From contig DAOVJY010000002.1 in assembly GCA_030632085.1 (NCBI GenBank), forward strand, positions 248,319 through 312,318: a stretch of 64,000 nt of DNA. Direction: 5' to 3'. The stretch comes from Candidatus Omnitrophota bacterium. Its GTDB lineage: Bacteria; Omnitrophota; Gorgyraeia; JAGLLT01. Position numbers and translations under genes: made by a program. Of this stretch, positions 3,497 through 58,370 are shown piece after piece (the stretch's first letter is position 1; every line of letters begins with the position of its first letter). The notes below the pieces were generated by a model. It saw nothing but the letters and a program-made list of their open reading frames with translations. It was not told the origin of the DNA and ran no database searches.

Positions 3497-3675
3497 TTTA
3501 AAGGGGAACCTTGTATGGTATTGCACCCTTCATTCACCCTTGAAGTAAAACTGATTAAATTAAGTAAAAATCACGAGAAAAATCATAATAGCCTTAGAAG
3601 AATTGTGATTGATTCTTTTGTGAAAGAAAAGCTGGGCATGGCAATGGCGAAAATAGGTGATGATTTTATTTAAAA

Positions 3676-6391: not shown

Positions 6392-6720
6392 ACTTCCGGG
6401 GACAGAACACTTAATTGTTGAAAAGGCGTCATTGTTCTGATAGAATCTATGTATGGCAAGGATAGCGAGAATAGTTATTCCCAATCACCCTCATCATATA
6501 ATCCATCGCGGTAATCGCCGGGAAAAAGTTTTCTTTAGTGAAGACGACAAACAGGCTTACCTTTGTTTATTAACTAATCAGGCCAAGAAATCGGGAATAG
6601 AATTTTCTTTAGGGGATGAGAGATTTATTAAGAAGATTGAAGGAATTACCGGAAAGATATTGCAAAAAAATAGGCCGGGACATATGCAGAAAGATAGTTA
6701 AGTGTTCTGTCCCCCGAAGT
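6392..6720 (+). mobile_element. MITE-like element (about 320 bp) with about 23-bp terminal inverted repeats (ACTTCSGGGGACAGAACACTTAA) enclosing a 5'-truncated RAYT/IS200-like transposase remnant
   Basis: Left IR at 6392-6414 and right IR at 6698-6720 are reverse complements. The interior is 90% identical to the element at 10873-11198. Confidence 0.75.
6453..6701 (+). pseudogene. N-terminal fragment (82 aa) of a REP-associated tyrosine transposase (RAYT, IS200/IS605 Y1 family)
   Basis: MARIARIVIPNHPHHIIHRGNRREKVFF..DDK..YL.LL matches the RAYT N-terminus. It terminates long before the HuH/Y catalytic motifs. Confidence 0.7.
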
Positions 6721-10481: not shown

Positions 10482-10494
10482 CTTACAATTCAGT

Positions 10495-10523
10495 TGCTTT
10501 TTTGGCTAATTTTTGGTATAAAT
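10495..10523 (+). promoter_or_regulatory. Conserved strong sigma70 promoter cassette, copy 1: TTGCTT, 17 bp, TGgTATAAAT
   Basis: Near-identical 45-nt block repeated at 17546, 18433 and 20813. Confidence 0.6.
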
Positions 10524-10750: not shown

Positions 10751-10900
10751 TATGGAATATAAAAAGCATCCCCTTACTTATGCGGAACAAGCCGATCTCC
10801 TCATTTCACGCAAACTATCCGCTGACCGTAATGCTCTCATTGAAACGCTTAAAAATGTTAATTATTATCGGAGTTCCGGGGACAGAACACTTAATTATTG
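10751..10900 (+). pseudogene. N-terminal 49-codon fragment of an Abi_2-family (AbiD/AbiF-like) abortive-infection gene, truncated by MITE insertion
   Basis: MEYKKHPLTYAEQADLLISRKLSADRNALIETLKNVNYYRSSG matches the Abi_2 N-terminus (LT.EEQ..LL..RGL....YYRLSGY). The reading frame runs straight into the MITE left IR at 10873. Confidence 0.5.
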
Positions 10901-11198
10901 AAAAGGTGTTGTTGCTTTGATAAAATCTATGTATGACAAGGATAGCGAGAATAGTTGCTTCCAATCACCCCAATCATATAATCCATCGCGGCAATCGCCG
11001 GGAAAAAGTTTTCTTTAATAAAGATGACAAACAGGTGTATCTTCGTGTATTAACTAATCAGGCCAAGAAATCGGGAATAGAATTTTCTTTAGGGGATGAG
11101 AGGTTTATTAAGAAGATTGAAGGAATTACCGGAAAGATATTGCAAAAAAATAGGCCGGGACCTATGCGGAAAGATAGTTAAGTGTTCTGTCCCCGGAA
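10873..11198 (+). mobile_element. Second copy of the RAYT-derived MITE, with terminal inverted repeats
   Basis: About 90% identical to 6392-6720. IRs GGGGACAGAACACTTAA / TTAAGTGTTCTGTCCCC. Confidence 0.75.
10933..11181 (+). pseudogene. RAYT/IS200-like transposase N-terminal fragment (82 aa), copy 2
   Basis: MTRIARIVASNHPNHIIHRGNRREKVFF... is identical in architecture to the fragment at 6453-6701. Confidence 0.7.
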
Positions 11199-15645: not shown

Positions 15646-16158
15646 ATGAATATAAAATCAGGAGACATATTATTATTTAAAGCTGAAAAAGGTATATCCA
15701 GGCTCATTGCCTGGGGCACAAACAGCAAGTATTCGCATGTGGCGGTGTGTGTGTCGGCTGAGATGAACCTTGCTATAGAAGCTATGGCAGGTGGGGTGAG
15801 GGCGAGAGATATAAGAACGATAGAAGAGCCGTATGATATATATAGAATTAAAGAGGGACATAGTTATAATCTAAATAAGACTATTTCATTTCTGGTGAGT
15901 AAGCTGAATTTAAAATATGATTACTTAGGTGTATTTTTTCTTGGATTTATAAAGCTTATGTCAAAGATTGGCAAGCCGCTGAAAAAGGCGGCGAATAAGT
16001 GGCAGATAGACAGGGATTATTTCTGCTCGGAGTTATGCTATAAGGCTTTTTATAATGGCGGTAATCTGGATATTGTGCCTGATACTGATGAGGCAGATGT
16101 TACTTCGCCGGGTGATATTTCTAAAAGTTCCATAGTGGAACTAATAGCTAATGGCTAA
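15646..16158 (+). CDS. YiiX/YebB-like permuted papain-fold peptidase (C92 family)
   Basis: GDILLFKAEKGISRLIAWGTNSKYSHVAV and DYFCSELCYKAF resemble E. coli YiiX (GDIIFQ...WSHTGI; YCSELV). Confidence 0.5.
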   Translation: MNIKSGDILLFKAEKGISRLIAWGTNSKYSHVAVCVSAEMNLAIEAMAGGVRARDIRTIEEPYDIYRIKEGHSYNLNKTISFLVSKLNLKYDYLGVFFLGFIKLMSKIGKPLKKAANKWQIDRDYFCSELCYKAFYNGGNLDIVPDTDEADVTSPGDISKSSIVELIANG

Positions 16159-16188
16159 TAGCTAAGAGCGTACGAATGGAGATATAGA

Positions 16189-17316
16189 TTGAAATTTAAG
16201 GGTGCGGTAGTTGTTTTTATATTAACCCTTGCCGTAATTGGTGGGGGTTTTTGTTTTGCTGAGGATTTTTATTCGGCGCAGGTGCGCGATATATCCGATC
16301 GGGAATATGAGCAGGCTGTTATTGAGTTGATTGATAACGCCCAAGAGTCGATAGTTGTTGGGATGTACTATATCAGTACGCGGTTAAAGGCGAATAATCC
16401 GGTTAAGATGTTGTTGAATGATTTGGTTGAGGCCGAAGAGCGGGGCGTAGAGGTCAAAATATATTTAAATACAAAGTTTCCTGATGTGAGTTATGAAGAG
16501 CTTGTTGGTAGAGATGAATTTAAAAGGCTGCAGGATGCGGGGTGTGAGCTGTATTTTATTCCGCCGGGGCGTAAGCTGCACGATAAAGTTGTTGTTGTGG
16601 ATAGGCGTTATGTGGTTGAGGGGAGTATGAACTGGAGTATTGTAGCGCTCAAGAATAATTTTGAGTCGGTAACGCTGATTAATTCACCGGGGCTTGGTAA
16701 GGAGAAAATAGCAAGGTTAGAGAAGATTTATGAGATACAGAAGAAAAAGGAAGAGGATAAAGAAAGAGAACCTCTTTATATTGATAGTATCATTGAAAAA
16801 ATAGAGGTGAAAAAGGCTTTACTGGAGGATGAGAAGTATTTTCCGATGATGCTTAAGAGAAGTGACCGCAGGGCAATGGACCTGTATCTGATACTGCTTG
16901 CATATAGTAAGAAGTTGGATAAGATTGAGTTTTTCCTCAGATTAGAGGATGTTGGATTGGGACTGGGGTTGCCGGCGTCATGGGATGACGAAGCATTGAG
17001 GCGTCAGGTAATAAGGGCGTTGCGGACGCTGGAGAAAAAGTATAATCTTATAGAAGTTGAGTTTTATCATTCAAGTGACGCATATATAACCATTTTACCT
17101 ATTTTAGGAGAGAGTTTTGCGATAGAGACAAAGAGTATTGGCTCACGTGATAGAAAAATCCCTCAACGGGTTAAGTTTTTGCTCCTGATAAAGGCGCTTT
17201 TGGAGAAAGAGGGCAAGGACTTGGATTCGGTGCCGCAGAAAGAGATTATGCGGCGTTTTCATATCGCGGAGCGGACGCTGGAGAAAGCGATGAATTCACC
17301 AGAGGTGAATGGCTGA
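16189..17316 (+). CDS. Secreted/membrane-anchored phospholipase D-family protein with a single HKD motif (Nuc-like) plus an unknown C-terminal domain
   Basis: N-terminal signal/TM. LHDKVVVVDRRYVVEGSMNWS matches HxK(x4)D(x6)GSxN. Confidence 0.7.
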   Translation: MKFKGAVVVFILTLAVIGGGFCFAEDFYSAQVRDISDREYEQAVIELIDNAQESIVVGMYYISTRLKANNPVKMLLNDLVEAEERGVEVKIYLNTKFPDVSYEELVGRDEFKRLQDAGCELYFIPPGRKLHDKVVVVDRRYVVEGSMNWSIVALKNNFESVTLINSPGLGKEKIARLEKIYEIQKKKEEDKEREPLYIDSIIEKIEVKKALLEDEKYFPMMLKRSDRRAMDLYLILLAYSKKLDKIEFFLRLEDVGLGLGLPASWDDEALRRQVIRALRTLEKKYNLIEVEFYHSSDAYITILPILGESFAIETKSIGSRDRKIPQRVKFLLLIKALLEKEGKDLDSVPQKEIMRRFHIAERTLEKAMNSPEVNG

Positions 17317-17535
17317 TGGCTGATGGCTAATAGCTTATGGCTAATAGCTAAGAGCAAAGGGCAAAAATAAAAAACTAAAAGCAGAAACAAAAAAAGAAAC
17401 AAAAAGCAAGTAGCTTTTAGCTGATGGCTCATAGTAAAAGCACAAAGCAAAAACAAAAAACAAACAAGTAACGATAACCAAAAAACAAAATATAAGAAGC
17501 AAGTTGCAAGATACAAGAGGCAAGCTGTAAGTGCG
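17317..17535 (+). repeat. A-rich, T-poor low-complexity tract with GGCTAATAGCTAAGAGC-type short repeats
   Basis: Runs of AAAAACAAA and reiterated GGCTAAT/TAGC k-mers. Similar tracts at 20662-20800 and 24295-24480. Confidence 0.6.
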
Positions 17536-17545
17536 ATTAATTCAG

Positions 17546-17575
17546 TTGCTTTTGGAGTTAATTTTTGATATAAAT
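17546..17575 (+). promoter_or_regulatory. Conserved sigma70 promoter cassette, copy 2
   Basis: TTGCTT, 17 bp, TATAAAT; same block as 10495. Confidence 0.6.
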
Positions 17576-17657
17576 AAAGATAATTCCGACCTACTACGAG
17601 CCAATGAGTTTTTGTGGTATAATTTTTTTGAAACAGAAAAAGGAATAAGGGCAGGAT

Positions 17658-17903
17658 ATGATTAATAATAAACACAAAGACCCTCTTCATGGTATTACCC
17701 TTGAAATGATCCTTGTGTATCTGGTTGAAAAAATCGGCTGGGAAAATTTGGCTCGAAGAATCAGGATAAACTGTTTCGCAAAAGACCCCAGCATCAAGTC
17801 TAGTCTGACGTTTCTTAGGCGAACCTCTTGGGCTAGAAAAAAAGTTGAAGATTTGTATATAACTGAGATAGGCTCTGTGTCGAAAAAGGGTACGATTCAA
17901 TAA
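17658..17903 (+). CDS. DUF2132 (VF530) family small protein
   Basis: KDPLHGITLEMILVYLVEKIGWENL...CF..DPSIKSSLTFLRRTSWARKKVEDLY matches the DUF2132 consensus. Confidence 0.65.
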   Translation: MINNKHKDPLHGITLEMILVYLVEKIGWENLARRIRINCFAKDPSIKSSLTFLRRTSWARKKVEDLYITEIGSVSKKGTIQ

Positions 17904-18042
17904 TCTCTTTGCTTAAGTGATTACGCATGAGCTGTGAATGTTCTTAGAAGCGATTGGCAAAGGTAAGAGTGACAAGCTTGCCTGTTTGGCTGTTTTAAGG
18001 AGTGGTTATCAATGAATGAAATAAAGAAAAAAGGAGAAACTC

Positions 18043-18138
18043 ATGGCTAAAAGTCTTAATACTAAAAAAAATATAAAGAAGAAGGCAGGAAAAACAATGA
18101 AAGAAAAGCGGCTTGAGAAAAGAGCGAAAAAAAGATAA
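18043..18138 (+). CDS. Small lysine-rich peptide (31 aa, MAKSLNTKKNIKKKAGKTMKEKRLEKRAKKR)
   Basis: AAAGGAG RBS 7 nt upstream. Not in the ORF track, which appears to omit ORFs under 60 aa. Confidence 0.35.
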   Translation: MAKSLNTKKNIKKKAGKTMKEKRLEKRAKKR

Positions 18139-18175
18139 GAAAAATAACACTATTTATAAAAAAGGGGGAGTGTAA

Positions 18176-18259
18176 TGGGAGACAAGGGGCAGAAGGATAA
18201 GAACAAGGCGAGCAAACAGAAGAAATCAAAAAATGATAAAAAGGCAAAAAAGAAGTAGG
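18176..18259 (+). CDS. Small lysine-rich peptide (27 aa, MGDKGQKDKNKASKQKKSKNDKKAKKK)
   Basis: GGGGGAG RBS. Followed by the terminator at 18299-18332. Confidence 0.35.
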
Positions 18260-18298
18260 ATAAGAGACAAAAAACAGGACTAGGGAAAATGTACTCTA

Positions 18299-18332
18299 CA
18301 GCCTCAAGATTTATCTTGAGGCTGTTTGTTTT
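18299..18332 (+). terminator. Rho-independent terminator (CAGCCTCAAGA..TCTTGAGGCTG plus T-run)
   Basis: Perfect 11-bp stem and a U-tract. Confidence 0.7.
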
Positions 18333-18432
18333 AGATAGTTAATTAAAAAGCTTTTTTGACGGTTTTTATATCAATTTCTAAGACTTTGCCTATTTTGGCA
18401 TAAGACATGCCTAATAAGTGCAATTAATTTAG

Positions 18433-18462
18433 TTGCTTTTTGGCCTGATTTTTGGTATAAAT
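18433..18462 (+). promoter_or_regulatory. Conserved sigma70 promoter cassette, copy 3 (upstream of hflK)
   Basis: TTGCTT, 17 bp, TGgTATAAAT. Confidence 0.6.
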
Positions 18463-18622
18463 AAAACAGAGGCCACCTTGAATTCGTAAAACATGTACTC
18501 ATTAAAAAAAAGTAAAACATCCCTTGTTTAGTCAAACTTAAGTTCTAAATATTTACGCGAGCTTTACTTTTGTAAATGATGCTTTCTAAGAACAAAAAAA
18601 TAGTACTTTGAGTATATATCCT

Positions 18623-18680
18623 CCCTTGTTTTCCAAAGAAAACACGCAGGGGGGATTAATTCCCCCGCCTTGGCGGGGTT
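18623..18680 (+). promoter_or_regulatory. Conserved leader RNA motif (CCCTTGTTTTC-N-GAAAACACGCAGGGGGGATT) followed by mutually exclusive GC hairpins abutting the hflK RBS
   Basis: The same motif recurs at 20857-20893. GGGGGGATTAATTCCCCC and CCCCGCCTTGGCGGGG overlap. Confidence 0.4.
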
Positions 18681-18691
18681 ATTAAGGAGAG

Positions 18692-19696
18692 ATGAATATG
18701 GAATGGAAAGATGTTCGCGGACCGGATGATATTATTGAGATGGGCAGGAAGAAAGTTGGCGATGTTGGAAAGTTTTTTCCGCTGGCGATTGTTGCCGTTG
18801 CCCTGTTGATTTTGATTGGGGGTTCAATTTATTCTATCGGCCCGGATGAGGTGGGCGTGATACAAAGATTTGGCCGATATAGTCATACTACTTCGCCCGG
18901 CTTGCATGTGAAACTTCCCTTTGGGATTGATAAACTAACTCCGGTTAAAATACAGAGAGTATTTAAAGAGGAATTTGGAATGAGAACTCTGCGCGCCGGG
19001 ATAAAGACGCAATACTCTTCCCGCTCATTTCTTGATGAATCTTTAATGCTTACCGGAGACCTCAATATTCTGGATGTACGCTGGATTGTACAGTTTAAGG
19101 TTAAAGACGCGATTAAACTTCTTTTTGAAACCAGAGACCCGGTGGATAATGTGCGGGATATTTCTGAGGTGGTCATGCGCCGGCTGGTGGGTGATTATCG
19201 TGTAGATGAGGTGCTTACCATAAGAAGAGAAGAGATAAACGACCTCGCGCAGATTGAGATGCAGAAGATACTTGATAGTTATAAGACGGGGATTCAGATT
19301 GTTACCGTCAAACTTCAGGATGTAAATCCTCCCGATGAAGTAAAACCGGCTTTTAATGAGGTGAACGAAGCTAAGCAGGAAAAAGAGCGGATGATTAACC
19401 AGGCCTGGGAGGCTTATAATAAGGTTATCCCTCGCGCTCGAGGTGAGGCGGAAAAAACCATTCGCGAGGCCGAAGGATATCGATTGGATAAGGTAAACCG
19501 GGCCAAGGGCGAGGCCGAGAGATTCTTAGATACATGGGCAGAATATAAAAAGGCACCTGAAATAACTCAGAAGAGGTTATATCTGGAAACAATGGTGGAA
19601 GTTCTGCCAAGGGCAAAAGAGAAATATATTGTCGATTCCGAGCAGACTTCGATTCTGCCATTATTGAATCTTGGTCAGATAGGGGGGAACCAATAA
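18692..19696 (+). CDS. hflK: HflK, FtsH protease modulator (SPFH/band-7)
   Basis: N-terminal TM plus an SPFH domain; GPDEVGVIQRFGRY matches HflK. Confidence 0.85.
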   Translation: MNMEWKDVRGPDDIIEMGRKKVGDVGKFFPLAIVAVALLILIGGSIYSIGPDEVGVIQRFGRYSHTTSPGLHVKLPFGIDKLTPVKIQRVFKEEFGMRTLRAGIKTQYSSRSFLDESLMLTGDLNILDVRWIVQFKVKDAIKLLFETRDPVDNVRDISEVVMRRLVGDYRVDEVLTIRREEINDLAQIEMQKILDSYKTGIQIVTVKLQDVNPPDEVKPAFNEVNEAKQEKERMINQAWEAYNKVIPRARGEAEKTIREAEGYRLDKVNRAKGEAERFLDTWAEYKKAPEITQKRLYLETMVEVLPRAKEKYIVDSEQTSILPLLNLGQIGGNQ

Positions 19697-20661
19697 TGAA
19701 GCTAATTTTAAGAATATCAGGGATTTTAGTAATTTTGGTAATACTTCTATTTTTAAGTGGTGCGGTGTATGTAGTTCGTGAGACCCAACAGGTGATAATT
19801 ACCCAGTTTGGCAAGCCTGTAGGGAAGCCGATTACCACTGCCGGGTTGCATTTCAAAAAGCCGCTTATACAGCAAATCCAGTATTTTGAGAAAAGGCTTC
19901 TGGACTGGGATGGTGACCCCAATCAAATTCCTACAAGAGATAAAAGGTATATATGGATTGACATTACCGCCCGCTGGCGAATTAGTGATGCTTTAAAGTT
20001 TTTGCAATCGGTGGGGACAGAAACTAGCGCGCACGCCAGGCTTGATGATATTATCAATTCCGCCACGCGTGATGCCGTTACTAATCAGCTCTTGGTTGAG
20101 GCGATAAGGAATACTAATCGCATTCTTGAGACTAAAGAGAAAGAAGATGAGGCCGTTGTAGTTACTAAAGAGGCGTTGGAGAAAATCAAAGTAGGACGCC
20201 AGGCTCTGGAGGGGAAAATTCTGGAAAGGGCTAAAATCCTTGCTCCTCAATACGGCATCGAATTGGTGGATGTGCGCATCAAGCGCATCAATTATGTGGA
20301 AGCGGTGAGAAAAAAGGTCTATGAGCGGATGATTGCCGAGAGAAAGCGGGCTGCCGAGCAATATCGTTCTGAGGGCCAAGGGAAACAGGCTGAGATTGAA
20401 GGCCAGATGGGTAAAGAATTAAAACAGATTACATCCCAGGCCTACCGCAAAGCTCAAGGTATCAGAGGAAAGGCGGATGCCGAGACAACCAAGATTTATG
20501 CTGACGCGTATAATAAGGATCCTTATTTTTATTCTTTCTTAAAAACATTAGAGACATACCGAAAGACGATTGATGAAAAGTCTACTATAATCTTAACAAC
20601 TGATAGTGATTACTATCGATATTTGAAAGGCCTTAAGTTTGAGTCAGGAGATAATAACTAA
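19696..20661 (+). CDS. hflC: HflC, FtsH protease modulator
   Basis: TM plus SPFH; VVRETQQVIITQFGKP. Immediately downstream of hflK. Confidence 0.85.
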   Translation: MKLILRISGILVILVILLFLSGAVYVVRETQQVIITQFGKPVGKPITTAGLHFKKPLIQQIQYFEKRLLDWDGDPNQIPTRDKRYIWIDITARWRISDALKFLQSVGTETSAHARLDDIINSATRDAVTNQLLVEAIRNTNRILETKEKEDEAVVVTKEALEKIKVGRQALEGKILERAKILAPQYGIELVDVRIKRINYVEAVRKKVYERMIAERKRAAEQYRSEGQGKQAEIEGQMGKELKQITSQAYRKAQGIRGKADAETTKIYADAYNKDPYFYSFLKTLETYRKTIDEKSTIILTTDSDYYRYLKGLKFESGDNN

Positions 20662-20800
20662 GAGACAAGTATAAAGTCATACCCTGGTGGGCACAGGTAA
20701 GTCACAAGACACAAGAAATAAGTCATAAGTCACAAAAAAACAAAAGGCTAAGAGTAAAGGGCTAAGGGCAAAAAAGCATAGAGCTTACAGCTATCAGTTG
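20662..20800 (+). repeat. A-rich low-complexity tract with GTCATAAGTCACAAG / GGCTAAGAG short repeats
   Basis: Read directly; the same k-mers occur as in 17317-17535. Confidence 0.55.
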
Positions 20801-20812
20801 TTAGCAATTTAT

Positions 20813-20842
20813 TTGCTTTTTGGGCTGATTTCTGGTATAAAT
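20813..20842 (+). promoter_or_regulatory. Conserved sigma70 promoter cassette, copy 4
   Basis: TTGCTT, 17 bp, TGgTATAAAT. Confidence 0.6.
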
Positions 20843-20856
20843 GAAGGTGATAAGAT

Positions 20857-20893
20857 TCCCGCTTGTTTTTTCGTGAAAACACGCAAGGGGATT
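20857..20893 (+). promoter_or_regulatory. Second copy of the conserved leader motif (CCCGCTTGTTTTTTCGTGAAAACACGCAAGGGGATT)
   Basis: Compare 18623-18660. Confidence 0.4.
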
Positions 20894-20994
20894 GAGGAAG
20901 TTAATAGACTCCTCGCTTAAGCAAAGGTAAATTCTCTTCGACAATTTGCCTTTAAGCTTCGGAATTAATTCTCCACCTAAGGCGGATCATTAAG

Positions 20995-21903
20995 ATGAGA
21001 AAAATCGTTTTAGCAGTAACAATATTATTTATTTTTAGTTTTATCGCACCTTTTATATTTTGCGATATAGTGTATTTTGATGGGAAAAAAATTGAGGGTG
21101 AAATAGTAGAAGAAACAGAGTCAACTATTGTTATAAAAACAACTATTGGCAAAGTTACTCTTGATAAAGAAAAAGTTAAAGAGATTAAAAGAACAAGACC
21201 TGAGGAAAATTTTTTCAAAAAAGGAAATTACTACTTTGAACAAAATAAATATGACGCGGCGATAGATTATTACAATAGAGCTCTTGAAGTCAATCCAGAT
21301 TATACTAAAGCCAAAGAAGCGCTGAATAGGGCGAGGAGAATTATAGAAAAAGAAGAATTGGGTAAATTGCTTGAAGTCAGGCGCATAAAAGAGAAAAGAG
21401 AGAAAGCAAAGGAGAAATTAGAAAAGAAGAGAGGCTTGGTCATTGACGAAATAGACGGTGAATTTAAAGTTGTTCATGTAATGAAAAATTCCGCCTCTTA
21501 TAAGGCTCAACTCAAAGACTGTGACCACATTATAATCATTGGCGATTTTCATACTAAGGATATGAGTTTTGAGAAAGCGCATGAGTTGCTTGTGGAGAAG
21601 AGCCCATTATTTTTAACTATAGAGCGCGAAGTTAACTTAGTAAGAAAAAGATTTACGTATAAAAAAAGAAGTATTGTTGGTGTCGGCATTTTTGTAGTTA
21701 AAGATAAACAGGATTTGGTCATTAGGGGTGTTTTAAAAAATTCTCCAGCTGATGAAACCGGTTTAAAAGCTGAAGATATAATTTTAAATATAGATAGTAG
21801 AGATTGCAAGAGCTTGAGTTTAGATGAATGTGAAGCTCTTATTTCTGATGGTGAATTAACTACAGTGAATATTCTTATAAAGAGAGTTGTTACGGTAAAG
21901 TAA
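20995..21903 (+). CDS. Exported TPR-repeat protein with a C-terminal PDZ domain
   Basis: Signal/TM; YYNRALEVNPDYTKAKEAL is a TPR; GVGIFVVKD...GVLKNSPADETGLKAEDIIL is a PDZ. Confidence 0.6.
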   Translation: MRKIVLAVTILFIFSFIAPFIFCDIVYFDGKKIEGEIVEETESTIVIKTTIGKVTLDKEKVKEIKRTRPEENFFKKGNYYFEQNKYDAAIDYYNRALEVNPDYTKAKEALNRARRIIEKEELGKLLEVRRIKEKREKAKEKLEKKRGLVIDEIDGEFKVVHVMKNSASYKAQLKDCDHIIIIGDFHTKDMSFEKAHELLVEKSPLFLTIEREVNLVRKRFTYKKRSIVGVGIFVVKDKQDLVIRGVLKNSPADETGLKAEDIILNIDSRDCKSLSLDECEALISDGELTTVNILIKRVVTVK

Positions 21904-39661: not shown

Positions 39662-39739
<78 letters not shown>

Positions 39740-39769
39740 AATTAGCTAATGGCATATGGCTAAGGGCAA

Positions 39770-40135
39770 ATGGTTAAGAAAGTAATGTTTAGATTTGAAA
39801 GTTTGGATATATGGAAACTGGCAATTGAATATGCTGATGGTTTATATGAATTAGCAAAAGGATTGCCAAAAGATGAGAGGTTCAATTTAGTTGATCAGCT
39901 GAAGAGAGCCGCTCTATCAATATCAAATAATATTGCTGAAGGGTCAGGTACTGCAACTAAGAAGAATTTTAGTTCCTTTTTGGATATAAGTTTAGCATCA
40001 GCTTTTGAAACAGTTAACCTTCTATATTTTGCAACTAAGAGAGGTTACATTGCAGAAAAAGAAAGGTTAAAATTTTATAAGAAAGCAGAGTTACTCGTTA
40101 AAAAAATTTGTTCTTTTAAAAAGGCTTTAAATTAG
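39770..40135 (+). CDS. Four-helix-bundle protein (TIGR02436; 23S rRNA intervening-sequence protein family)
   Basis: LAKGLPKDERFNLVDQLKRAALSISNNIAEG matches the family. Confidence 0.75.
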   Translation: MVKKVMFRFESLDIWKLAIEYADGLYELAKGLPKDERFNLVDQLKRAALSISNNIAEGSGTATKKNFSSFLDISLASAFETVNLLYFATKRGYIAEKERLKFYKKAELLVKKICSFKKALN

Positions 40136-40172
40136 TCAGTAATTATAAGCCATATGCTATAAGTTATATGCT

Positions 40173-40254
<82 letters not shown>

Positions 40255-40353
40255 AATTAGCAAATAGCAAATAGCTTATGGCGAATGGCAAATTTTAGCT
40301 ATTAGCTATAAAGTGAGCCGAAGGTGAACAAGCTATAGGCGATAAGCTAAAGT

Positions 40354-40431
40354 GGTGGGTGTAGCTCAGTTGGTTAGAGCGCTGGACTGTGGCTCCGGAG
40401 GCCGGGGGTTCAAATCCCCTCACTCACCCCA
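40354..40431 (+). tRNA. tRNA-His (anticodon GTG) with encoded G-1
   Basis: Loop CTGTGGC; extra 5' G pairs with discriminator C73, which is diagnostic of tRNA-His. Confidence 0.75.
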
Positions 40432-40503
40432 TTTAAGAAGTAAATTTAGTTGTATTAATTGTTGGATTTTATAGAATTCATTTGAAGTAAGAAGTTCATT
40501 AAT

Positions 40504-40580
40504 GCGCCCGTGGCTCAATTGGATAGAGCGGTGGACTTCGAATCCGACGGTTGCAGGTTCGAGTCCTGCCGGGCGCGCCA
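40504..40580 (+). tRNA. tRNA-Arg (anticodon TCG by my reading); first anticodon-stem pair is a G-A mismatch
   Basis: Loop CTTCGAA; same acceptor stem as the Arg(TCT) gene. Confidence 0.55.
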
Positions 40581-40721
40581 TATTTTAGCGTATAGCGTGT
40601 AGAGAATGCGTTGATTTTTAAGAGAGTTATTGGAATATTTGTTTTTTGATGCAAAAATATTTGACCTTTCCAATCGGGTATTGTATAATGAGTGCTTCTA
40701 TAATTAGATTCTTGATAATTT

Positions 40722-40797
40722 GCCCGTATAGCTCAATTGGCAGAGCAGGGGCCTCTTAAGCCCAAGGTTCAAGGTTCAATTCCTTGTGCGGGTACCA
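40722..40797 (+). tRNA. tRNA-Lys (anticodon CTT)
   Basis: Loop CTCTTAA; acceptor stem with two G-U pairs. Confidence 0.65.
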
Positions 40798-40872
40798 ATT
40801 TGGCTAATGGCATATGGCTGATAGCGAATGGCACAAACAATTTGCGATTTGCAATAGGCAATTTGCTAGTTT

Positions 40873-40959
40873 GCGGACGTGGCGGAACTGGCAGACGCGC
40901 AGGATTTAGGATCCTGTCCTAGTGATAGGGTGAGAGTTCGACCCTCTCCGTCCGCACCA
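40873..40959 (+). tRNA. tRNA-Leu (anticodon TAG), long variable arm
   Basis: 87 nt; loop TTTAGGA; class II variable arm. Confidence 0.8.
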
Positions 40960-41009
40960 ATATAGCTAATGGCGTATGGCAAATGGCTAATGGCCAATAG
41001 TTTATAGAT

Positions 41010-57197: not shown

Positions 57198-58370
57198 ATG
57201 AATAAAACAAAAAAAGTTGCCATATTCGGTTCAACCGGTTCAATTGGAAAGAGCGCCCTTGATGTTCTTAAGCGATTCAAGGATGATTTTGAAATAAAGG
57301 CGCTTGTAGCTTGCAAACAGTCTAAAAAATTTCTTAGGCAGATAAAAGAATATAAGCCTGATTATGCTGTTATGGCAGATATGAAAGCCGCGGATGAAAT
57401 AAAAAACAGTGTTGGCAAAATAAAAACGGAATTTAGCGCAGGCAACAAAGCTGTTATTGATTTAGCGAAAAGAAAAGACATTGATATAATTATCATGGCT
57501 ATATCCGGCGCTTCAGCCCTTTTGCCATTAATTGAGGCAATAAAGTCTTCAAAGACAATAGCCTTAGCTAATAAGGAATCTCTGGTTATGGCCGGTAAAA
57601 TAGTTATGAATTTAGCTCAAAAACATAAGGCGACTATTATTCCTGTGGATTCTGAGCACAGTGCTATATTCCAATGTCTTGAAGGTAAAAAGTATAAACC
57701 CGCGAGGATATACTTAACGGGTTCTGGTGGGCCATTAATAAAAACGCCCAAAAGTAAATTACGAAATATTACTCCAAAAGAGGCGCTGAATCATCCCAAG
57801 TGGTCTATGGGTAAAAAAATTACTATTGATTCCGCAACTTTAATGAATAAGGGTTTAGAGGTAATAGAAGCTATGCATTTATTTAGTATGCCCCTAGATA
57901 AAATTAAGGTTTTAATTCATCCGGAGGCGATTATTCATTCAATGGTGGAATTTTCAGACGGGAGTATTCTTGCGCAATTGGCAAGTCCCGACATGAAGCT
58001 TCCCATAGAATATGCTCTTTCGTACCCCGAGAGACTTAAAGCTGTGGCCCAAAGAGTTGATTTTATAAAAAATAATAAAATAACATTTTTGGAAGCTGAT
58101 ATTAGTAAATTTCCTTGCTTGAAATTAGCTTATCAAGCAGCCAAGAAAGGATATACCTATCCCATCGTTTTAAACGCGGCTAATGAGGTTGCCGTTTGGG
58201 CTTTTTTAGATAAAAAAATTAAGTTTACTGATATACCTTTAGTAATTAAAAAAATAATGAAGAAACATAAACCACTAAAGAAGTACAATCTTAAAGATAT
58301 ACTCTCAGTTGATAATCAAGCACGATTAGATGCCCAAAAAATAATAGAAAGGTTAAATTCAAGATGTTAG
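57198..58370 (+). CDS. dxr: 1-deoxy-D-xylulose 5-phosphate reductoisomerase
   Basis: VAIFGSTGSIG NADPH site; LANKESLV. Confidence 0.9.
   Translation: MNKTKKVAIFGSTGSIGKSALDVLKRFKDDFEIKALVACKQSKKFLRQIKEYKPDYAVMADMKAADEIKNSVGKIKTEFSAGNKAVIDLAKRKDIDIIIMAISGASALLPLIEAIKSSKTIALANKESLVMAGKIVMNLAQKHKATIIPVDSEHSAIFQCLEGKKYKPARIYLTGSGGPLIKTPKSKLRNITPKEALNHPKWSMGKKITIDSATLMNKGLEVIEAMHLFSMPLDKIKVLIHPEAIIHSMVEFSDGSILAQLASPDMKLPIEYALSYPERLKAVAQRVDFIKNNKITFLEADISKFPCLKLAYQAAKKGYTYPIVLNAANEVAVWAFLDKKIKFTDIPLVIKKIMKKHKPLKKYNLKDILSVDNQARLDAQKIIERLNSRC

Follow-up and report, generated by a model that had tools for sequence, protein, structure and literature searches.

Elements of several kinds act in the leaders of bacterial genes. 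The 5' stabiliser stem-loops include the hairpin in the 5' untranslated region (UTR) of E. coli ompA and the leaders of B. subtilis aprE and ermC. CIRCE/HrcA (TTAGCACTC-N9-GAGTGCTAA) and HAIR/HspR (CTTGAGT-N7-ACTCAAG) are promoter-proximal operators of stress regulons, CIRCE also acting as an RNA hairpin. Modular 5' UTR repeats include the pneumococcal BOX, enterobacterial ERIC and Neisseria Correia elements. Here we compare these systems with a leader motif present in two copies on a stretch of 64,000 nucleotides (the window) from Candidatus Omnitrophota bacterium (assembly GCA_030632085.1, contig DAOVJY010000002.1, positions 248,319 to 312,318). One copy precedes hflK and the other a gene coding for a TPR-PDZ protein (“PDZ copy” below). 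The motif forms a bulged stem-loop, referred to as hairpin A; module M is a separate element proximal to the ribosome-binding site (RBS).

Among the described systems hairpin A is most like a promoter-proximal 5' stem-loop, stabiliser or factor-binding, and by this analogy we file it among the cis-acting leader hairpins. As with the ompA, aprE and ermC elements, it is a stable hairpin lying a few nucleotides from where the mRNA is predicted to begin, can be carried from gene to gene and has a loop whose sequence appears unimportant. Those stabilisers are however defined by position and stability, whereas the upper stem of hairpin A is invariant and accompanied by a conserved 3' bulge. Our preferred reading, to which we give a probability of about 0.5, is that hairpin A is the promoter-proximal stem-loop of a promoter-plus-leader cassette and a recognised or functional 5' element, module M being independent of it. 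A literature search returned nothing on Omnitrophota leaders or riboswitches. In this uncultivated phylum a hairpin common to unrelated operons would provide a handle on a regulon and on the factor that reads it.

The original prediction, made from the window alone, was of a conserved leader motif behind repeated promoters and of a switch at the hflK RBS. The motif is confirmed and recurs in a relative; the switch, i.e. a riboregulator, a thermometer or a protein-operated device, is not.

Hairpin A and its promoter cassette

The two copies of the motif are far beyond chance: with up to 3 mismatches allowed, the window has two occurrences of its 19-nt 3' half where 0.02 are expected, and two are reached in none of 100 shuffles. 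Copy 1 (CCCTTGTTTTCcaaaGAAAACACGCAGGGGGGATT) lies at 18623-18657 on the forward strand, where it had been predicted, and copy 2 at 20858-20893, thus starting one base later than the 20857 first given. Both share the spacing CTTGTTTT-N5-GAAAACACGCA-R-GGGG. The complete stem-loops are as follows.

18618..18656, + strand: hairpin A, hflK copy (-19.7 kcal/mol, z -4.7; 61.3 bits with the covariance model)
20854..20893, + strand: hairpin A, PDZ copy (-14.8 kcal/mol, z -3.1; 51.7 bits)

Hairpin A is composed of an outer stem between a C-run and a G-run, a 3' bulge (CGC or CGCA), an upper stem UUGUUUU(C)/GAAAACA and a variable 4-nt loop. In the hflK copy the base is AUCCUCCC/GGGGGGAU, the bulge CGC, the upper stem UUGUUUUC/GAAAACA and the loop CAAA; the 5' strand of the PDZ copy has an additional GC, to which the GC of the bulge is paired. 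The G-run at 18649-18654, on which the proposed switch was built, thus has CCUCCC (18620-18625) as its partner at the base of hairpin A, a stronger pairing that had been overlooked.

For comparison we used 80 Omnitrophota loci, one genome per species with HflK (labels L001-L080 etc.). L001 is the closest relative by HflK (96% identity), and L105-L108, found via an 86%-identical homologue of the window's TPR-PDZ protein, are contigs of the same sister species as L001. Five copies of hairpin A are known in total: the window has two, and the sister species (L001/L105) the other three. Upstream of hflK it is found at one of the 80 loci, L001, again behind the same promoter. L105-L108 hold two more copies: one precedes the PDZ orthologue and the other follows the VF530 gene, two small Lys-rich open reading frames (ORFs) and a terminator, the contig stopping before the downstream gene.

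The covariance-model scan from which further copies were anticipated gave none beyond the five known. The model was trained on all five copies and the search covered about 900 kb of Omnitrophota DNA, i.e. the window, 83 loci (749 kb), 19 kb of additional sequence of the same genome and nine further loci, with filters off for the window and these nine; it returned only its training copies. A 17-bit match at 58106-58152 (- strand) was discarded because it lies antisense within an ORF. We also scanned metagenomes for the exact core CTTGTTTTN{4,6}GAAAACACGCA. The 24 loci retrieved are regarded as chance matches: none has a flanking C-run and G-run or a promoter of the cassette type, and most read as coding. 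Treating them so, the exact core appears confined to the window's genome and the sister species. Hairpin A is thus a real motif restricted to a very narrow lineage.

Both window copies are associated with a repeated promoter. The copies before hflK and the TPR-PDZ gene are identical at 27 of 30 positions (chance expectation 0.00) and belong to a family of four.

18433..18462, + strand: promoter cassette copy before hflK (-35 TTGCTT, 17-nt spacer, extended -10 TGGTATAAAT)
20813..20842, + strand: promoter cassette copy before the TPR-PDZ gene
17546..17574, + strand: promoter cassette copy without hairpin A, before the VF530 gene
10494..10523, + strand: promoter cassette copy without hairpin A, before a 52-codon ORF and a terminator-like hairpin
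18463..18617, + strand: segment of about 155 nt between promoter and hairpin A, found in this genome only (a 14-nt spacer in the other four copies of hairpin A)

The promoter is of the canonical sigma-70 type, and its conservation extends into the spacer and over about 20 nt 5' of the -35 box. The 18433 copy is orthologous to the third cassette of L105, since the upstream terminator and flank are common to both. About 83 kb of this genome were sampled (the window and about 19 kb beyond it): the two copies of hairpin A and the four promoter copies all lie inside 10.4 kb, and no further cassette was found in the 19 kb outside the window. The same promoter cassette, with the spacer and about 25 nt 5' of the -35 box conserved, is seen in sister species (L002 7472, L004 8034, L006 4794, L105 1906, L124 659), where it precedes unrelated genes (Amidase_3, LOG-like, VF530, M50-peptidase-like). 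By its occurrences this promoter family appears typical of the clade and not specific to hflK.

In four of the five copies hairpin A starts exactly 14 nt after the TATAAAT -10 box. The location of the motif behind two promoter copies thus holds for the TPR-PDZ gene; before hflK the motif is not directly behind the promoter, about 155 nt intervening.

All five copies adopt the same bulged fold (-14.5 to -23.8 kcal/mol, z -3.1 to -6.1). RNAalifold gives a consensus of 13 pairs, two of them changed on both sides, and the outer stem keeps pairing despite changes, e.g. CCUCCC/GGGGGG in the window hflK copy and UCCGC/GCGGA in the L105 PDZ copy. Covariation of the outer stem, seen among five related sequences, is suggestive only. 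Mean pairwise identity is 0.91 over the promoter (30 nt), 0.49 over the 14-nt spacer, 0.30 in the loop and 0.95-1.00 in the upper stem. Because the neutral positions are saturated, the stem appears to be held by selection on its sequence and not by recency. The leaders of the PDZ orthologues, whose proteins are 86% identical, have likewise diverged everywhere except in the promoter and hairpin A.

Two other identities of hairpin A were considered and rejected. It is not an intrinsic terminator or attenuator: neither copy coincides with a + strand terminator-like site, and the 3' flank is AUUAAUUC or AUUGAGGA, with no U-tract. It also resembles the LexA box of Verrucomicrobia (TGTTC-N4-GAACA), but its half-sites are different and no SOS genes follow it.

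Module M and the pairings before hflK

The hflK leader ends in the second element, module M, with the architecture (G-rich)-UYAAU-UC-(variable GC-closed hairpin)-UC-AUURA-GGAG(G)-AUG. A search by regular expression and hairpin filter gave 10 matches in about 815 kb, against 0-2 in shuffles. The copies and the genes they precede are the following.

18656..18685, + strand: module M, hflK copy, UUAAU-UC-(CCCCGC CUUG GCGGGG, 18663-18678)-UU-AUUAA, with GGAG directly after
20965..20993, + strand: module M, PDZ copy, UUAAU-UC-(UCCACCUAAGGCGGA)-UC-AUUAA, ending 1 nt before ATG 20995
Window: two copies (hflK; TPR-PDZ gene)
L001: two copies, the RBS-proximal one before hflK
L105: one copy (PDZ orthologue)
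L030: two copies (hflK; GT20 trehalose-6-phosphate-synthase-like gene)
L034: two copies (alanine-dehydrogenase-like gene; 20-codon Cys/poly-Lys ORF after hflC)
L061: one copy (hflK)
L124: one copy, slightly variant (M50-peptidase-like gene)

The AU helix covaries across six species-level lineages. Its second pair is U-A in five cases, C-G in four and U-G in one; C-A is never found, though the search pattern allowed it. The inner segments are unrelated in sequence and always form hairpins. Owing to these two properties module M appears to be a true RNA motif next to the RBS, and it is more widely distributed than hairpin A. It would be an RBS-clamping motif that covaries across several Omnitrophota lineages and is not in Rfam. 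Its flanking GGA motifs led us to look for a CsrA-like protein by regular expression, with no match in the sampled DNA, which is a small part of each genome.

The second of the two hflK hairpins in the original prediction is the inner hairpin of module M. To evaluate the competition proposed between them, four features of the leader and its genes are needed.

18649..18666, + strand: alternative palindrome GGGGGGATTAATTCCCCC, judged incidental
18686..18700, + strand: Shine-Dalgarno (SD) sequence GGAG(AG) and likely hflK ATG 18698, predicted unpaired
18698..20661, + strand: hflK and hflC, both SPFH/Band 7; the ORF finder opens hflK at 18692
18692..19696 and 19696..20661, + strand: hflK ORF and hflC (SPFH/Band 7)

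The true hflK start is probably ATG 18698 (MEWKDV, matching homologues), 8 nt past GGAG at 18686-18689. An exact look-up of the 334-aa HflK ORF gave no match, probably because of this difference in start.

The leader was proposed to toggle between GGGGGGAUUAAUUCCCCC and CCCCGC-CUUG-GCGGGG. The first pairing is GGGGGGATTAATTCCCCC at 18649-18666; the second, CCCCGCCTTGGCGGGG, was written at 18662-18677 and folds as a stem at 18663-18678. They are mutually exclusive, as stated, through their overlap at 18662-18666, but the shared segment is a C-run and not the G-run. The element does adjoin the SD, and module M is a conserved structure abutting the RBS; the two overlapping hairpins nevertheless do not make a switch. 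Three adjacent segments make up GGGGGGAUUAAUUCCCCC: from hairpin A its 3' strand, and from module M first its conserved 5' arm and then the initial five C of the inner hairpin. In the minimum free energy (MFE) structure hairpin A and the CCCCGC/GCGGGG hairpin coexist (-33.6 kcal/mol, frequency 0.35). Forcing the GGGGGGAUUAAUUCCCCC fold gives -26.4 kcal/mol, a cost of 7.2 kcal/mol, and its pair probability in the ensemble is 0.0. Its formation would moreover require the opening of hairpin A, a structure made before it. GGAG at 18686-18689 is unpaired (p >= 0.9) with a short or a long leader and open in both states, and the MFE structure is the same at 15, 25, 37, 45 and 55 C. The palindrome is absent from the orthologous L001 leader (GGGGGGATTAATTCGGGC) and from other copies (ATTAATTCAGGT, ATTGAGGAAG, ATTAAGGGAG); at its position the third L105 copy has GGGGGATTAATTCAGGT and the PDZ copies ATTGAGGAAG and ATTAAGGGAG.

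Thus neither SD pairing, nor folds of comparable stability, nor conservation of both helices, as a two-state RBS switch or thermometer would have, is found. ROSE and fourU thermometers are likewise short 5' UTR hairpins near the RBS with a U-rich strand, but here the hflK SD is unpaired at every modelled temperature and the U-rich strand of hairpin A pairs with GAAAACA instead of the SD. At the gathering threshold Rfam 15 finds in the window 7 tRNAs only; in 18300-21100 nothing meaningful appears even at E <= 10, thermometers and riboswitches included. In the leaders of L001, L030, L009 and L034, E <= 1 gives nothing but one spurious match to a miRNA-family hairpin (L034). Because it is less stable than the joint fold, must displace a hairpin transcribed first, leaves the SD open and is absent from every homologous copy, the GGGGGGAUUAAUUCCCCC pairing is a by-product of the junction where two leader modules abut. 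The folding models do not support a two-state switch at the hflK RBS, which we consider highly improbable. It would have meant a new riboregulator of an FtsH-modulator operon, which the evidence does not support. In our preferred reading the short AU helix of module M (UYAAU/AUURA) would clamp a variable GC hairpin directly 5' of the SD. In the window hflK leader hairpin A and module M would be fused head to tail; because both can fold together with the SD left open, the leader would be constitutively open and not a two-state switch.

On the minus strand the same palindrome (18649-18666), followed by UGCGUGUUUU, scores as terminator-like. No convergent gene ends there and the resemblance is probably fortuitous.

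The role of hairpin A

In the preferred reading a cassette of about 110 bp would have been copied before at least two operons (hflKC and the TPR-PDZ gene) in a narrow Omnitrophota lineage. From promoter geometry alone, the constant 14-nt distance to the extended -10 box predicts a 5' tail of about 6-8 nt, and hairpin A would be the first structure of the mRNA. At this place it may protect or mark the 5' end, bind a shared factor, or both, while locking an anti-SD-like CCUCC tract against the G-run. We infer that it is recognised or functional because the upper stem is conserved in sequence and the loop is not. Its thermodynamic stability, as in a 5' stabiliser, is found in the five copies. In the window hflK leader hairpin A is intact despite lying about 155 nt from the promoter, which favours a role independent of the exact promoter distance. 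This retention, together with the G-U pairs of the outer stem and the asymmetric bulge, makes an action at the RNA level most likely, an operator in the DNA being the main rival.

Several points weigh against the preferred reading. The 5'-proximal position is deduced from promoter geometry. A palindromic DNA operator would likewise be marked by an invariant stem around a free loop, and the sense and antisense strands fold about equally well, so that strand asymmetry does not discriminate between RNA and DNA. The five copies come from two close species and probably represent two or three paralogous loci, which makes the covariation thin. Finally, the 5' stabiliser hairpins of other bacteria are not known to be conserved in sequence; stabilisation alone thus fails to explain the invariant stem.

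An operator would consist of TTGTTTTC-N4-GAAAACA, centred about 30 bp past the -10 box, and bind a dimeric repressor by which the operons carrying the cassette would be co-regulated, as with CIRCE/HrcA or HAIR/HspR. Like these, hairpin A is an inverted repeat with conserved half-sites (0.95-1.00) and a free spacer (4 nt, 0.30), located between the -10 box and the start codon in several protein-quality-control operons, and in four of the five copies it stands at a constant interval from the -10 box. Moreover VF530 (PF09905), a small putative DNA-binding protein whose gene is itself behind a cassette promoter, is encoded beside the cassettes in both species. It is the sole candidate for a cognate regulator. 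But the sequence differs from that of CIRCE and HAIR, neither consensus being found on direct reading, the spacer is of 4 nt, and there is an additional GC-rich outer stem, bulged and with G-U pairs. The outer stem pairs through changes (CCC/GGG to CGC/GCG); with the G-U pairs and the asymmetry of the 3' bulge, these are features of a folded strand and not of a symmetric duplex site. In addition the hflK copy has been conserved at a distance of 190 bp from the promoter. An operator is thus unlikely on balance, although it is the alternative we take most seriously. Much less probable is that the similarity is just what is left from a promoter region that was recently duplicated or recombined, the hairpin being functionless. 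The region is indeed rearranged among close relatives (order of VF530, hflKC, PDZ and LOG), two variants following hflC are present in one sample, and the cassettes are clustered. However, the loop and the 14-nt spacer are near random while the stem is not, and the hairpin is kept in orthologues whose other leader parts were replaced.

The leader of the TPR-PDZ gene (20854-20994) gives access to a larger family, being composed of hairpin A, a GAGGA/UCCUC hairpin, hairpin C and module M.

20894..20914, + strand: SD-like GAGGA paired with anti-SD-like UCCUC (GAGGAAGUUAAUAGACUCCUC), common to the window and L001
20915..20957, + strand: hairpin C (GCUUAAG..AAAUU CUCUUCGAC AAUUU..CUUUAAGC), with conserved CUCGCUUAA just before

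From the GAGGA/UCCUC hairpin through hairpin C, 79 nt are homologous to the L001 hflK leader (E ~1e-13) and more distantly related to both L030 leaders. Compared with L001 and L030, hairpin C covaries in its stem, six pairs being changed on both sides. Its loop contains an extra, inserted element (CCCCGUGGAAUU...AAUUCCCGGGAYUAAGUC...) in L001 and in the second L030 copy, and parts of this element recur in L009, L105 and L124. The modules vary in number and order: the window hflK leader has hairpin A and one module M, that of L001 has hairpin A, three module-M-like units and the inserted element, one of the two L030 copies has a 58-nt insert that the other lacks, and L124 presents another combination. 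In this respect the family resembles BOX, ERIC and Correia elements, some of which carry promoter or RBS signals, as it does in the near identity of copies within one genome (L030). It differs from them by its low copy number and its fixed register with promoter and SD; in an inspection that was not systematic, neither terminal inverted repeats nor target duplications turned up.

Such leaders could constitute an undescribed, stress-responsive family of Omnitrophota translational riboregulators, of which hairpin A, hairpin C and module M would be parts and which would replace nhaA-I before hflKC in some lineages; we hold this to be doubtful, somewhat more so than the operator. The CUCGCUUAA anti-SD tract or CCUC tracts would compete for UUAAGGAG, the module M 5' arm serving as an anti-anti-SD, and the window hflK leader would be a reduced, permanently active version. 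RNAalifold indeed pairs the invariant CUCGCUUAA with the SD region UUAAGGAG in three species, in a helix that competes with the 5' arm of module M. In the modelled ensembles the SD is about 50% bound in L030 (SD-bound and SD-free 50:50), fully sequestered by CCUCGCU in L034b and open in the window hflK leader. In the L006 species an orthologous cassette is followed by CUCCCCUUGCUUAAGCAGGAG, a hairpin containing the SD of the first gene, a LOG-like gene that precedes hflK. In L030 the same leader stands before hflK and the GT20 gene, and an ion riboswitch, nhaA-I, occupies this position in at least 34 of the 80 Omnitrophota loci. SD/anti-SD interplay, different from the pairing first proposed, is thus plausible from these models. 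Nevertheless the predictions vary leader by leader, CUCGCUUAA is present in 3-4 sequences only, no conserved core resembling a ligand pocket was identified, and the modules shuffle as repeat elements do. If this view were right, the family would also control the trehalose-6-phosphate-synthase-like gene of L030 and offer a second RNA-based means of switching genes for membrane quality control and osmoprotection when ionic or osmotic stress occurs.

The inserted element, as CCCCGUGGAAUU-loop-AAUUCCCGGGAYUAAGUCC-hairpin, is located at 5700-5790 in L001, 10130-10190 in L030, 7800-7923 (- strand) in L009, 1936-1990 in L105 and 690-745 in L124. In L009 it stands alone before an RBS, and it has no Rfam match.

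hflK leaders and gene neighbourhood

The nhaA-I (Li+/Na+) riboswitch lies at the position that hairpin A and module M occupy here, directly 5' of hflK. Its core, with a terminator-like stem and a U-tract, is found about 60-110 nt 5' of the gene at L028, L032, L036-L039, L042, L048 and L050-L060, and further at L062, L064-L070, L072-L078 and L080. Rfam RF03057 scored above gathering at all six loci tested. It has no sequence or structure similarity to the window leader, which gives no match to it, and its copies carry terminator expression platforms, unlike the window leader. The riboswitch also precedes an MscS-type channel gene, in L075 (9283-9338) as confirmed by Rfam and Pfam, and by pattern only in L063 (4844), L070 (2503) and L078 (9657).

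Leaders of at least four unrelated types thus appear before hflK (nhaA-I; the hairpin A/module M type; the type of L002, L003, L006 and L007; others), and by this diversity the site appears to be a regulatory hot spot in Omnitrophota. The presence of nhaA-I among them points to ionic or osmotic control of HflKC. This association was not found in the paper on the Li+ riboswitch, the main text of which does not mention hflK, HflC, FtsH or SPFH (PMC9646797).

The other genes beside the cassettes in the window are the following.

17658..17903, + strand: VF530 (DUF2132, PF09905) gene, behind promoter copy 17546
20995..21903, + strand: TPR and PDZ protein with an N-terminal signal-like segment

Very small Lys-rich ORFs (e.g. 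MAKSLNTKKNIKKKAGKTMKEKRLEKRAKKR and MGDKGQKDKNKASKQKKSKNDKKAKKK) are kept beside VF530 and hflKC, at 18044-18139 and 18176-18259 in the window, about 2440-2700 in L105 and 337-552 in L124. ORFs of 20 codons with Cys and poly-Lys (MCSCGASHKKKKAKKKKKKK), each with its own SD, follow hflC in L034 (8166-8228) and L049.

We compared the gene order of the window (17546-20842) with L001, L105-L108, L006/L113-L117 and L124. The order around VF530, LOG-like, hflKC and TPR-PDZ varies among species with 82-96% HflK identity, and the two junction variants that coexist within one sample are 3' of hflC. Recombination among the cassette copies is suggested by the breakpoints, which coincide with promoter cassettes or lie close to them.

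A repeat family with the core GGGGACAGAACACTTAATTAT flanks short gene cassettes (including AbiEii, DarT, Macro, methyltransferase and ParE-like genes) at 3670, 3770, 6394(-), 6688, 9068(-), 10449, 10874(-), 11168 and 14885 of the window, where a 300-nt repeat is also found (6394-6693 and 10874-11173). It could be an array similar to integron attC sites or to miniature inverted-repeat transposable elements. A similar sequence sits where L001 and L107 diverge after hflC. Lastly, intergenic arrays with a 7-nt period (GGCTAAT, AGCTAAT, GGCAAAT) are present at 16141-16169, 17303-17367 and 20746-20774, and also between tRNA genes at 39736-41008.

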